Below are positions 565 through 3,154 of a stretch of DNA of 34,578 nt, one piece after another. The notes below the pieces were generated by a model. It saw only the letters and a list, made by a program, of their open reading frames with translations. It did not search any database and was not told where the DNA came from. The first letter of the stretch is position 1, and each line of letters begins with the position of its first letter. The DNA comes from Eubacteriales bacterium (lineage in GTDB: Bacteria; Bacillota; Clostridia; Oscillospirales; CAG-382). Position numbers and translations under genes: made by a program. The stretch covers positions 1-34,578 of the forward strand of contig JAZRPU010000073.1 of NCBI GenBank assembly GCA_045649365.1. Reading direction: 5' to 3'.

Positions 565-607
565 AATGCGCCTCCAAAATGTAATATTTTATCGGTCTTC
601 TTAATGT

Positions 608-636
608 ATTATATCACAAATTAACAATCAAATCAA
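608..636 (-). promoter_or_regulatory. Sigma-A promoter for the NlpC/P60 gene
   Basis: TTGATT-17bp-TATAAT with TG upstream of the -10. Confidence 0.65.
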
Positions 637-798
637 GATAAAAACAATCCCAATAGAAAACAGAGTTATAAAAATCGCAATTACGAGGAAAACTCTCCAA
701 ATAAAAATTAGCAAATGTGCAGGAATTTGAAATAGCTAACTGTCATCGATGCCTTGGCTCATGATAAAGCATCATACTTCTCACGGATACTTCCGCCC

Positions 799-860
799 CC
801 TCGAATCCCTTCCCGATAAAAACGAAAACAGACACCTCGAGGTGTCTGTTTCCGTTTTTG
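799..860. repeat. 62-bp direct repeat copy 1 (CTCGAATCCC plus palindromic hairpin)
   Basis: 59/62 identical to 1906-1967; palindrome core AAACAGACACCTCGAGGTGTCTGTTT. Confidence 0.95.
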
Positions 861-899
861 TATATGGGCTACAAAAAAGATATTTTAAGAAACAAATAA

Positions 900-1682
900 T
901 TATGTTTTTTCTCCTTCGTTAGCAGTAGTTTTATAAGCCTTGTTTTCTAAGTATGCAGAAAACTCCTGGGGATCCCCGTTAAAAACATTTACATCAATGT
1001 ATTTTTCTTTTCCGTTATACCCTTTGAGCCTTTCACGATTCGTATATTGCCAAAATGTCCATGCCCTTTCGTCATACATTTTAGGTTTTGAAATAACGTT
1101 TCTAATCCAAATATCGTATTCTTTATAGTCGTTGGATAAATACAGCTCATAAGACTTTTCTGTGGCATAAATAATAGGTTTTTGATTGTAATGCTCTTCC
1201 AACAAAACGAGCATTACCTTTAATTGTTTTTCTACATCTGCTCTGTCAGGTGGATTTTTTTCTTTATCACCGTAAAATTCCAAATCAATAACTGGTGGCA
1301 ACATTCCTTCAAATGGAGCAACTGTATTTATGAAATTTTCCGCCTGCGTCTTTCCTTCACTGTCATAGCTAAAAAAATGATAAGCTCCCACGGAAAGCGA
1401 AGTTTTTTGTGCCTCTTGAAAATTATAAGCAAAGTATTTATCCACAAAAGAACTTCCCTCGGTTGCCTTTATAAATGCAAAAGAAATTTTTTGTGACGAT
1501 AGAATATTCCAATCTATCTCTCCCTGATATGATGAAACATCGATACCTTTTATATCGTATTGGTAACTGGATATGCCGTTTAAAATGATTATGCCGTTCC
1601 AAACCAAAGCAAAAATAACAATACTAACGACTAATAATGCGGAAACTGCAATTAACATTATCTTAAGGAGTCTATTTTTCAA
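900..1682 (-). CDS. Glycoside hydrolase family 25 muramidase (lysozyme) with N-terminal membrane anchor
   Basis: GIDVSSYQG, KATEG, GAYHF, catalytic DLE, WQY and DVN motifs; hydrophobic N-terminus; TTG start. Confidence 0.93.
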   Translation of the reverse strand: MKNRLLKIMLIAVSALLVVSIVIFALVWNGIIILNGISSYQYDIKGIDVSSYQGEIDWNILSSQKISFAFIKATEGSSFVDKYFAYNFQEAQKTSLSVGAYHFFSYDSEGKTQAENFINTVAPFEGMLPPVIDLEFYGDKEKNPPDRADVEKQLKVMLVLLEEHYNQKPIIYATEKSYELYLSNDYKEYDIWIRNVISKPKMYDERAWTFWQYTNRERLKGYNGKEKYIDVNVFNGDPQEFSAYLENKAYKTTANEGEKT

Positions 1683-1702
1683 AATATCACCACCTTTTAT
1701 TC

Positions 1703-1731
1703 ATTATACCATACTTTTGTTTGTATTTCAA
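1703..1731 (-). promoter_or_regulatory. Sigma-A promoter inside the cassette
   Basis: TTGAAA-17bp-TATAAT with extended -10 TG. Confidence 0.7.
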
Positions 1732-1810
1732 TTCTTCGCCACAGATATGTTTCTTTTTTGTGAGAGTTCAAATCTAACTTGAGAAAAATATCTTTTTTGT
1801 AGCCCTTTGA

Positions 1811-1831
1811 TGGTGGAGACGGTAGGATTCG
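1811..1831 (-). repeat. Duplicated 3' end of tRNA-Ala (att-like)
   Basis: TGGTGGAGACGGTAGGATTCG matches 1966-1986 at 20/21, including the CCA end. Confidence 0.9.
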
Positions 1832-1905
1832 GTCTCATGGCTCGACGCCCTTCGGTCTTCCGCGGCTCTTGGCTTGCCACTGGCAAGTCAATTCACTACC
1901 GCTCA
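1832..1905. repeat. GC-rich REP-like palindromic insert
   Basis: Nested stems GCGG...CCGC around the hairpin CTTGCCA-C-TGGCAAG. Confidence 0.55.
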
Positions 1906-1967
1906 CCTCGAATCCCTTCCCGATAAAAACGGAAACAGACACCTCGAGGTGTCTGTTCTCGTTTTTG
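1906..1967. repeat. 62-bp direct repeat copy 2; its hairpin probably terminates the tRNA transcript
   Basis: 59/62 identical to 799-860; on the minus strand the hairpin follows the tRNA CCA directly and ends in a T-run. Confidence 0.9.
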
Positions 1968-2041
1968 GTGGAGACGGTGGGATTCGAACCCATGACCTAT
2001 GCGTTGCGAACGCATCGCTCTCCCAACTGAGCTACGCCCCC
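1966..2041 (-). tRNA. tRNA-Ala (anticodon CGC)
   Basis: 76-nt cloverleaf GGGGGCGTAGCTCAGTTGGGAGAGCG-ATGCG-TTCGCAA-CGCAT...GGGTTCGAATCCC...CGTCTCCACCA; G3:U70 alanine identity pair; encoded CCA. Confidence 0.97.
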
Positions 2042-2464: not shown

Positions 2465-3154
2465 CTATTCTTCATCAATCCCACAGCTTCTCATATATGC
2501 CTCTATCTTCTCCAACGCTGTTTTTTCTATACGCGACACGTAGGAACGGGAAATACCAAGTTGCTTTGCTACCTCACGTTGCGGAAGCTCTCCACCGCTT
2601 TTCAATCCGTACCGCTTTTCTATTATTACTCTTTCTCTCTCGTCGAGAACGTTTTCAATAGCCCGCATCATAACAGAAATTTTTATTGTTTTATCTACCG
2701 TTTCCAAAACGTTGTCATCTTCTGAAAGTATTTCCATGTATGTCAGCGGATTCCCGTCCTTATCCACATCAATACTGTCATTCATAGAAGTTTCATTGAC
2801 CAGCTTTTTTTGTGCTCTGAAATGCATTAATATTTCATTTTGAATGCATTTTCCCGCGTATGTCGCAAACCTTGCTCCTTTTTCCGCGTTAAAAGAATCA
2901 ATAGCCTTTATAAGCCCGATTGTACCTATTGATATTAAATCATCCTGGTCCTTTACTGTGGAATAATATTTTTTAACGATATGTGCCACAAGTCTTAAAT
3001 TGTGAATTATCAGCTTTTCCCTTGCTTTAGAATCTCCTTTCGACATTAATGAAAAATATTCTTTTTCTTCTTCTGTTGAAAGAGGGTCAGGGAACGAATT
3101 TGTCCCGTTCACTCTCAAAAACAGAAAAACAAACTTTAATAAAAATTGAAGCAT
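2465..3154 (-). CDS. sigK: Sporulation sigma factor pro-SigK
   Basis: NSFPDPLS, HNLRLVAHIVKKY, DLISIGTIGLIKAI, ATYAGKCIQNEILMHFR, QREVAKQLGISRSYVSRIEK; start moved to ATG 3154 after AGGAGG; hydrophobic pro-sequence. Confidence 0.9.
   Translation of the reverse strand: MLQFLLKFVFLFLRVNGTNSFPDPLSTEEEKEYFSLMSKGDSKAREKLIIHNLRLVAHIVKKYYSTVKDQDDLISIGTIGLIKAIDSFNAEKGARFATYAGKCIQNEILMHFRAQKKLVNETSMNDSIDVDKDGNPLTYMEILSEDDNVLETVDKTIKISVMMRAIENVLDERERVIIEKRYGLKSGGELPQREVAKQLGISRSYVSRIEKTALEKIEAYMRSCGIDEE

Follow-up and report, generated by a model that had tools for sequence, protein, structure and literature searches.

A family of DNA hairpin elements with defence cargo behind tRNA and tmRNA genes of gut and rumen Clostridia

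Introduction

Genes for transfer RNAs (tRNAs) and for transfer-messenger RNA (tmRNA) are the best-known landing sites of genomic islands, a preference that is explained by an integrase carried on the incoming element. The folded sites of integron cassettes (attC) and of CTX-phi mimic a duplex target and make use of an enzyme that is encoded elsewhere. Here we describe a repeat element behind the tRNA-Ala(cgc) gene of a Eubacteriales bacterium, on contig JAZRPU010000073.1 of assembly GCA_045649365.1, the whole analysed stretch of 34,578 nucleotides (nt) being referred to as the window. The element is a unit of an apparently undescribed family of DNA hairpin elements with defence cargo, and full-text searches of the literature returned no description of such an element. 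The common layout of the family, read on the tRNA strand, comprises the tRNA, a terminator-like hairpin (T), a short spacer, an inverted copy of part of the tRNA T-arm (X'), a folded core and, in direct orientation, a second copy (X) of the tRNA part that runs from T-loop to CCA end. A first-pass annotation, made from the letters of the window alone, had proposed a miniature element that targets a tRNA, regenerates its own site and builds arrays. This idea proved broadly right, although the constant part of the element was misjudged, and a one-off local duplication is an unlikely explanation of the repeats.

The closest described mechanisms are those of integron cassettes and CTX-phi-type elements, and the closest biology is the tandem accretion of tycheposon-like elements at tRNA genes. 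Like integron cassettes, including clusters of attC sites that have no integrase, the units are non-autonomous, contain no recombinase gene, form arrays at one site and hold variable cargo, often defence genes; a structured site kept by pairing and not by sequence may be a further likeness. In the element the folded site has Watson–Crick pairing kept by covariation and conserved unpaired bases at the junction, and both strands fold alike. Unlike an integron cassette, the element has as its target the T-loop of a tRNA or tmRNA gene and not attI, its stem copies that target and varies by locus while the junction sequence is strongly conserved, its cargo has its own promoter-like site, and no integron integrase was found in 41 genomes. 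CTX-phi-type elements exploit the Xer recombinases of the host through a folded single-stranded attP site (PMC3442271). In the present element, too, two inverted target-like segments less than 100 nt apart would fold into a duplex that mimics the target, one strand exchange followed by replication would leave exactly the order that is seen (an inverted copy, a spacer and a direct copy at the distal end), and tandem arrays and an enzyme not encoded by the element are further points in common. The same comparison brings out differences, since the target of the element is not dif (56 of 86 copies lie directly behind tRNA or tmRNA genes), its units measure 130–155 bp as opposed to a phage genome, and no phage record matches it. 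Tycheposons, as presented in their preprint (10.1101/2020.12.28.424599), share the tRNA and tmRNA targets, the partial tRNA repeats that flank cargo, the outward displacement of older units by new arrivals and the defence or adaptive cargo. They carry tyrosine recombinases, however, and the element has none, and the element has a conserved folded module with an inverted target copy; in the preprint the terms 'hairpin' and 'without integrase' are absent and 'inverted repeat' occurs once, in the reference list.

More distant systems share single traits. Islands borne by tyrosine integrases, tycheposons and remnants of the cis-mobilizable element (CIME) type have the same direct repeat of a tRNA 3' end, but the element lacks their integrase. 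REP and BIME sequences, REPIN–RAYT systems and transposable elements of the miniature inverted-repeat type (MITEs) are also small, non-coding intergenic palindromes near terminators with many copies per genome and, as with REP and BIME sequences, class 2 copies of the element lie in clusters of GC-rich hairpins. Unlike these systems, the element is not tracked by Y1/RAYT transposases, its terminal inverted repeats are derived from the target and specific to the locus, and there is neither a fixed short target duplication (the flanking repeat runs from 21 to about 70 nt) nor a linked transposase. Right ends of IS200/IS605 elements with a TnpB guide RNA and IS110 elements with a bridge or seek RNA differ in that TnpB is absent from element-positive genomes and the IS110 recombinase is confined to element-negative ones. 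The Gut-1 RNA motif (RF01706) occupies the same tRNA and tmRNA tails of gut Clostridia, but differs from the core in sequence and fold. Membership of integron cassettes, CTX-phi-type elements, integrase-borne islands, REPIN–RAYT systems and the IS200/IS605 and IS110 groups fails each time on a defining feature: IntI, dif, integrase, RAYT, TnpB or IS110.

Anatomy of the tRNA-Ala locus

Genomes are denoted G (G000 being that of the window), contigs C (the window is C73) and fetched loci L. On the minus strand, ARAGORN places tRNA-Gly(ccc) (2218–2291) and then tRNA-Ala(cgc) (1966–2041, minus strand; 63.2 bits with the Rfam tRNA model) upstream of the repeats. The last 21 nt of tRNA-Ala, tRNA positions 56–76, constitute the first repeat copy, X1 (1966–1986, minus strand). 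Next come a 42-nt palindromic hairpin with 21-nt arms that are 90% complementary (T copy a, 1925–1966), terminator-like on both strands, and the 19-mer ATCGGGAAGGGATTCGAGG (1906–1924, minus strand), which consists of a 3-nt spacer and X', the left arm of stem P1. X' reads GGGATTCGA at 1908–1916, the reverse complement of TCGAATCCC, and is an inverted copy of the T-loop and the 3' strand of the T-stem; throughout the family X' tracks the local T-loop. The complementarity claimed by the first-pass annotation was seen for both tRNA-end copies, GGGATTCG (1909–1916, minus strand) pairing with CGAATCC in each.

The segment that had been called insert 1 (1832–1905, 74 nt, minus strand) is the family core in its tRNA-Ala variant (nhmmer E 1.9e-28), and the covariance model of the family matches the window contig at C73:1820-1919(-) with 59.8 bits (E 1e-15). 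Its predicted stems on the minus strand are P2 (about 1899–1902 with 1862–1865), P3 (1882–1889 with 1871–1878, with one A-C mismatch) and P4 (1847–1849 with 1839–1841). The identical core variant stands behind tRNA-Ala in G002, G003 and G004. The unit ends with X2 (1811–1831, minus strand), a direct copy of tRNA positions 56–76 that is identical to X1 at 20 of 21 positions and forms the right arm of P1; the copy of the tRNA 3' end as a whole extends to 29 nt (1811–1839 against 1966–1994, 86% identical, spacing 155).

Beyond X2 lies a gene for a membrane-anchored GH25 muramidase of 260 amino acids (aa) (900–1682, minus strand; Pfam PF01183, E 1.8e-40) with a promoter-like site at 1703–1731 (11 of 12 matches). 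It is bracketed by a perfect 21-nt inverted repeat (866–886 and 1785–1805), which the first-pass annotation did not mention and whose motif also occurs in G001. A second terminator-like 42-nt hairpin (T copy b, 818–859; repeat and terminator scan) begins a degenerate unit 2 and is followed by the second copy of spacer plus X' (799–817, minus strand), the end of a 62-nt direct repeat. The remainder (720–798, minus strand) is made up of insert 2 (730–798, 69 nt) and a T-loop-like 11-mer, TTCAAATTCCT (720–730), which may or may not be a decayed T-arm. The 62-nt repeat (799–860 and 1906–1967; 59 of 62 positions identical, 95%), the hairpin within each copy and the copy of the tRNA 3' end are all present, the last being longer than annotated. 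In the terminator scan both copies of T score as intrinsic-terminator-like on either strand, and the region as a whole holds six such hairpins, compared with 1.3 +/- 1.3 in shuffled sequence. The 62-mer is restricted to these two places in the 1.9-Mb assembly, other matches being at most 18 nt long with E of at least 0.19.

Insert 1 has relatives both in this genome and in related ones, and the two inserts are, as had been stated, largely unrelated. Their likeness is limited to about 10 nt, in that the first ~10 nt of insert 2 resemble the start of P2 and similarity to the family stops thereafter. Hairpins had been assigned to both inserts; insert 1 does fold, as the core of the three-armed structure, but insert 2 folds like its shuffles (-22.8 against a mean of -22.81, z = 0.00 as RNA, and z = +0.29 as DNA). 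Insert 2 gives no family match with the covariance model and a weak one with a hidden Markov model (HMM) on the 19-mer alone (E 0.36), and it has no relative elsewhere in the genome or in 12 related genomes. An origin from the native flank seen in G003 was considered and rejected, the alignment score (14.5) lying below the shuffle maximum (15.5). Judged by its sequence, insert 2 is probably to be read as a truncated core followed by flank, and not as a second type of insert. The best explanation of the locus is that 1811–1965 is one unit of the family and about 720–1810 an older second unit with the GH25 gene, which occupies the cargo position of that unit, and a truncated core.

Size, range and layout of the family

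The core is part of a three-armed fold of about 95 nt; in gut and rumen Clostridia this fold follows tRNA and tmRNA genes of at least 17 kinds. In the genome of the window, a 1.3-kb query followed by a small HMM revealed five further copies, behind tRNA-Ser(gct) (C163), a tRNA-Ser-like 3' end (C24, at the contig end), tRNA-Glu(ctc) (C60), tRNA-Gln(ctg) (C18, at the contig end) and, on a contig where no tRNA was found, a hairpin (C227). Among 41 related genomes, BLAST with one copy detected the element in 10 and the covariance model in 15; the covariance matches take in all 5 other genomes of the same genus and 11 of 24 others of the family, and in many close relatives of this set the model did not find the element. 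An exact 22-mer from the junction occurs in at least 118 stretches of a species-representative genome collection, of which 80 loci were fetched. Their hosts are uncultured Clostridia, Oscillospiraceae, Ruminococcus and Eubacteriales of gut and rumen. One match, in Saccharibacillus, lies within a gene and was dismissed as chance.

The other 79 loci contain 86 core copies, and for 56 of these a tRNA or tmRNA gene lies on the same strand less than 600 nt upstream, namely tmRNA (16 copies) and 16 tRNA species. The expectation that units would lie behind other tRNAs and carry the 3' end of each was thereby borne out for tRNA and tmRNA genes alike: X matches the local gene exactly over at least 18 nt in 29 of the 56 copies, and X' matches the local reverse complement exactly over at least 9 nt in 46 and at least 12 nt in 21. 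The identity of X begins at C56 in 24 of 39 cases and otherwise at T54 or T55. X' mirrors each variant of the local T-loop and in some loci extends into the acceptor strand, reaching nearly 23 nt in L138. The ~155-bp unit of the window is thus a member of a family at tRNA and tmRNA 3' ends. The first-pass annotation had seen a constant frame with exchangeable inserts; since the frame of terminator and X' is specific to the locus and insert 1 has relatives elsewhere, it is insert 1 that constitutes the family, to which insert 2 does not belong. The remaining 30 copies are made up of those in repeat clusters, near contig ends or kilobases from a tRNA.

Cores without a tRNA were seen in L038, L046 and L053 (all of G027) and in L078, L084, L092, L096, L099, L103, L122, L135 and L136, with a GGTAGCGAAGCG-like sequence before them and a GCTGTCA...CTGATGAGG-like one after, a second context for the module. 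At the tRNA-Ala locus of G003 (L039, G003:C63, 198–273), the functional tRNA gene disagrees at two T-loop positions with its own X and X', both of which retain the T-loop sequence of the window tRNA; from these sequences, the gene and its X copy appear to have had different histories.

Fold of the core and the question of DNA or RNA

In the fold, X' and X pair as P1, from which a long arm (P2, an internal loop and P3) and a short arm (P4) depart, joined by conserved unpaired runs. It was evaluated on an alignment of 69 tRNA-linked copies (23 from relatives and 46 from the 22-mer scan), which left out 13 copies outside a tRNA context and those with insertions in P3 or P4. Over 28 pairs and 69 sequences, 92% of the cells are paired (78.4 +/- 0.5 in shuffles), both sides have changed in 23 of 28 pairs (13.1 +/- 1.5) and 242 cells show double changes (66.9 +/- 8), values that none of 500 shuffles reached. 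When partners were slid by 1–3 columns, 29–48% of cells paired. In P1, 84% of the cells are paired, and both X' and X match the local gene. The pairs are of an unusual kind, G-T occurring in 0 of 481 cells of P2 and 3 of 614 of P3, as compared with 46 of 783 (5.9%) in the terminator hairpins and 108 of 897 (12%) in the tRNAs of the same loci. The two strands fold into one and the same three-way junction with equal stability (-24.1 and -22.7 kcal/mol, z -2.3 and -2.4). A pairing required of both strands speaks for a DNA hairpin or cruciform rather than an RNA.

Comparison of the window with Rfam 15, as the first-pass annotation had recommended, gave nothing on the core at the gathering score or at E <= 10. 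L035 shows a weak permuted-tmRNA match (23.4 bits, cut-off 47) that is caused by the T-arm copy. A hammerhead-like junction and tmRNA-like ends, noticed by eye, found no support from models, and the acceptor pairing of a tmRNA-like fold is absent. The tip of P3 or P4 is, in several copies, the exact point of insertion of a small GC-rich hairpin that measures about 45–50 nt and has GGGGTCCCCGCAAAAC... arms (L041, 1642–1781; L052, 1499–1630; L064, 1692–1850; L059, 1218–1561; L031, 1080–1210), and hairpin tips seem to be insertion sites.

Empty sites, arrays and cargo

The tRNA-Ser(gct) site is empty in 6 related genomes, where the tRNA is followed by one terminator and unrelated flank, and occupied by one or more units in 5; a further locus stops at the contig end. 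At tRNA-Ala(cgc), G003 has the same unit as the window, G004 a unit with a different terminator, and G002 about 1.1 kb with two open reading frames (ORFs) and then two units, one with a nested insertion; G005 begins like G002. The array building proposed by the first-pass annotation is seen across the family, in tandem arrays of 2–4 units at tRNA-Glu in G005, in G002 and in L087, L097, L124, L126, L141, L142 and L144. One hairpin that is tRNA-proximal in L119 belongs to the second unit of L108, as would fit the entry of new units beside the tRNA.

Where both ends are visible, cargo is situated between the tRNA-side X and the terminator before X'; the GH25 gene of the window has a promoter-like site of its own. 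The cargo of these loci consists of a methylase and a restriction enzyme of type II (L144, fourth unit of its array; PADLOC E 1.7e-210 and 1.8e-82), an HTH-CAAX protein (L088), an HTH-TPR protein inside a split terminator hairpin (L115), two small ORFs (G002:C251) and 4.8 kb that encode a BspA-like LRR protein and a zinc-ribbon protein and include a GH25 cassette with 93% identity to that of the window (G001:C206). In L115, the 1.1-kb gene in the loop of the terminator hairpin has inverted repeats of its own. The G001 islet is bounded by tRNA-Pro(cgg) on one side and by a core of the tRNA-Ala type and then the tRNA-Pro 3' end (20 of 21 positions) on the other. In six further loci, labelled as cargo by position alone as their left ends lie outside the fetched DNA, the genes just upstream of the core include those for MjaI-type restriction-modification, Thoeris ThsA and ThsB, a bSEFIR protein, OLD/GajA-like ATPase-nucleases and PDC-S01. 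Recognised defence genes occur in 5 of 9 long loci.

Terminators, P2–P3 arms and P4 arms are found in mosaic combinations between species, and the terminators after the tRNA and after the second X are unrelated in at least 13 loci. One terminator family, 94–97% identical over 31 nt, stands behind tRNA-Arg(acg) in one genome and tRNA-Gln(ctg) in another (after X2 in L090; after both the tRNA and X2 in L152), so that some 'terminators' move between loci.

Search for an enzyme and a vehicle

The observation that no integrase lies beside the element was confirmed and extended. The 80 loci contain 2339 ORFs of at least 100 aa, which were scanned with a home-made recombinase profile of limited sensitivity, seeded with two recombinases from the genome of the window. 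Three Xer-like ORFs were found, each 2.4–2.9 kb from the core and none adjacent to it; in 77 of 80 loci this profile detected no integrase or remnant within +/-10 kb. The window contig has no match to PF00589, the 5 matches in its genome all lying on other contigs. When the 2339 ORFs were clustered, the clusters being unannotated, no ORF family occupied a fixed place relative to the core, with the exception of an ORF of about 155 aa just upstream of tmRNA in 12 loci.

None of the other enzymes searched for tracks the element. The first-pass annotation had suggested looking for RAYT or HUH transposases; Y1 transposases (PF01797) occur in 5 of the 15 genomes with the element and in 9 of the 26 without it, and do not track it. 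Among the same 41 genomes, TnpB (PF07282) occurs in one, which is element-negative, and the IS110 recombinase (PF01548) in 3, all element-negative; none exceeds the 265-bit cut-off of the integron integrase model (TIGR02249), the best score (81 bits) belonging to a generic Xer-like recombinase. Four runs of assembled contigs, sharing 0.20–0.24 of sampled words at best, cover window positions 600–2000 in fragments, with no joint within. A tRNA copy in the far left flank was inverted in 2 and direct in 1 of 50 loci, counts that are uninformative.

A side observation concerns tRNA-Pro(cgg) in the genome of the window (G000:C115, 3722–3798, minus strand), which has beside it a tyrosine-integrase gene with three stop codons (2536–3070, plus strand); the same tRNA-Pro in G001 holds the 4.8-kb islet with the GH25 cassette, which is without an integrase.

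Proposed mechanism

By analogy with attC and CTX-phi sites, we propose, and give about an even chance to, a non-autonomous cassette whose folded stem would mimic the tRNA target and which would integrate in the T-loop. The proposal is founded on the anatomy of the unit, the family, the locus-specific X and X', the DNA-type pairing, the arrays, the empty sites, the cargo and the absence of a linked integrase, from which we infer a folded intermediate, a strand exchange and an enzyme. On the tRNA strand a unit would consist of X (tRNA position 54–56 to CCA), a terminator with or without cargo, a spacer, X' and a core of about 70 nt with two hairpin arms. In a single strand or an extruded cruciform, X' would pair with X to give a three-way junction with a stem having the sequence of the duplex tRNA gene, and a recombinase or nickase supplied in trans would bind the conserved junction. 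The tRNA gene and a circular element would then exchange one strand within the T-loop, and replication would follow; a single exchange is suggested because X', less than 100 nt of structured DNA and X all lie at the tRNA-distal end.

The predicted product, tRNA(1–55) | X - terminator/cargo - spacer - X' - core | X - native downstream DNA, has the layout that is found. The tRNA would be rebuilt with the X of the element and its transcript ended by the element's terminator; the site would in this way be regenerated and could be hit again, which allows arrays, and the newest unit would adjoin the tRNA while older ones decay. One copy in G001 agrees with the proposal: its core interrupts a partial copy of tRNA-Glu at the T-loop, and about 10 nt are all that is found where X - T - X' should be. 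Long X - T - X' palindromes on which no functional tRNA depends would be expected to be lost.

Several observations weigh against the proposed cassette. It leaves unexplained how the element is retargeted to a new tRNA without breaking that tRNA, and the collections searched offer no vehicle that would supply single strands: 50,697 phage and 72,556 plasmid records are without a match, and the one match in 2.9 million viral contigs is a pair of units at one end of a contig predicted to be a prophage. The partner searches found no enzyme, and no free circular or single-stranded form was seen in the assembled contigs. About 10 copies have no tRNA and, like those of G027, are embedded in clusters of GC-rich repeats. 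As regards the fold, 46 of the 69 aligned rows were found by the exact 22-mer, which inflates conservation in the junction and P4 and leaves P2 and P3 unbiased. The distal unit of an array is often degenerate or cut within the core (the window, C60, L108, L117, L119 and L148); the model accounts for such abrupt ends by later deletion only, and partial units at array ends suggest either insertion of concatemers or frequent deletion. Finally, the terminator after the second X copies the first in at least 7 single-unit loci (L077, L116, L131, L132, L141, L150 and L152) and around the G001 islet, which counts against the model because a terminator carried by the element should have no relation to the native one. 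A duplication of X together with the terminator, or Campbell-type homologous recombination of a locally derived circle, would account better for these loci.

Alternative explanations

Matching terminators, partial units at array ends, roaming terminators and mosaic arms keep three other explanations alive. The units could be scars of integrase-borne islands (prophages, islands or tycheposon-like elements) that entered at the T-loop sublocation and lost their integrase, leaving attL, a little cargo and the attR-proximal end, with accretion and unequal crossing-over as the source of arrays. Integration of this sort classically leaves a direct repeat that starts in the T-loop and covers the tRNA 3' end, the cargo (restriction-modification, Thoeris, OLD-like nucleases) is of island type, newer units lie beside the tRNA as the tycheposon preprint (10.1101/2020.12.28.424599) describes for repeated integration, a broken integrase adjoins tRNA-Pro in the genome of the window, and a predicted prophage abuts the array in L072. 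We nevertheless consider this origin unlikely, since integrases or their remnants are missing from the neighbourhood of 77 of 80 loci and represented in the 3 others by distant Xer-like ORFs, complete units measure merely about 130–155 bp, a single core serves 17 tRNA and tmRNA targets although an attP arm would co-vary with its integrase, and hairpins with covarying, purely Watson–Crick pairs and an inverted target copy are foreign to known attP sites. The zig-zag order of the units, X - T - X' - core - X - T, is also what copying of a dumb-bell would produce, and a nick-and-join (HUH-type), rolling-circle or rolling-hairpin process, in which a nickase cuts the T-loop of an extruded T-arm and the junction on the X side and concatemers of a dumb-bell circle (X - T - X' - core) are inserted, would explain why arrays of identical units, including that of the window, end in a partial unit against unrelated DNA. 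It would equally lead one to expect stems with Watson–Crick pairs only, one arm being copied from the other, and the three-armed hairpin recalls, in shape only, the terminal hairpins of parvoviruses. With Y1, the sole HUH family searched, distributed over positive and negative genomes as stated above and no free replicon in the phage, plasmid and viral collections, we regard such a process as quite improbable.

Homologous recombination would need no dedicated enzyme, in keeping with the failed search for a partner. A looped-out circle with X, often together with the terminator, would re-enter by a Campbell-type crossover, cargo would be swapped through homology in the tRNA and in X'-core-X, and the core would have another role, for example in stimulating recombination or in replication of the circle. 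Both kinds of loci are covered, those with matching terminators offering about 60–70 nt of homology and those with differing ones X only, and the mosaic combinations of terminators, P2–P3 arms and P4 arms between species are accommodated. On the other hand, the conserved, covarying core and X' are left without a reason, the spread of one core to 17 tRNA and tmRNA genes is not accounted for, and 21 nt is short for RecA-type recombination; the explanation therefore strikes us as very improbable. Least credible of all is that read-through from the tRNA yields a small structured or tRNA-like RNA with CCA at its end; the first-pass annotation had proposed to look for CCA-ended transcripts. A three-way junction with a single-stranded 3' tail formed by the tRNA acceptor strand and CCA, and a terminator that often follows X, would suit such an RNA. 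G-U pairs are, however, nearly absent from P2 and P3, as against 6–12% in RNA hairpins of the same loci, both strands fold alike, no Rfam family matches the core, and a strong terminator separates the tRNA from the element, with a spacer of about 10 nt in some copies that leaves no room for a promoter. An RNA of this kind is accordingly highly unlikely.

Neighbouring repeat families

Other repeats share the landing zone of the element. Runs of GAAATC/GATGAAATC hairpins follow tRNA-Ala in G002 and G005 and represent a separate family. In L035, near-threshold matches to RF01706 (1281–1357, plus strand, and 1378–1452, minus strand; 46.6 and 40.6 bits, cut-off 50) lie just downstream of the element behind tmRNA, and Gut-1-like matches are found downstream of the element in L065 (935–1110) and L214. 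The 21-nt motif that brackets the GH25 gene of the window (minus strand), followed by ATAKAC and a terminator, recurs elsewhere as the conserved end of a second, Gut-1-type tRNA-tail element. This element was seen in two other genera, in L226 (G007:C91, about 2026–2060) and L227 (G026:C20, about 2039–2070), behind tRNA-Arg(acg) and tRNA-Leu(gag), where the same first terminator is followed by Gut-1-like heptamer hairpins. Behind tRNA-Glu(ctc), in L031 (G005:C34, 1260–1430), L235 (G003:C2) and L236 (G001:C207), a partial tRNA-Glu copy that starts near the anticodon stem holds a structured insertion of about 140 nt in its anticodon loop and is repeated with its own terminator, possibly an analogous element with the anticodon loop in the role of the T-loop.

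Concluding remarks

A large family of 130–155-bp units, together with kilobase-sized islets of restriction-modification, Thoeris, OLD-like and other defence genes, occupies tRNA and tmRNA sites without an integrase, and all that stays constant in it is a DNA hairpin junction to which a copy of the target is attached. Tentatively, and with more doubt than attaches to the cassette itself, the family may be viewed as a programmable integrase-less cassette, in which a DNA junction of about 70 nt would be read by a host or unlinked enzyme, the adjoining target-copy stem would supply the address, re-addressing would have reached at least 17 tRNA and tmRNA genes, and an integron-like landing pad would stack terminators and defence genes. 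If the stem does supply the address, this would be a new route to site-specific integration, close to those of attC and CTX-phi but re-addressable, and of relevance to the biology of mobile elements and to genome engineering. Even when interpreted most cautiously, the family accounts for numerous contig breaks and repeats without annotation that lie behind tRNA genes of gut and rumen Clostridia, shows where small defence islets lie, and speaks against taking the partial tRNA copies found there for prophage scars.

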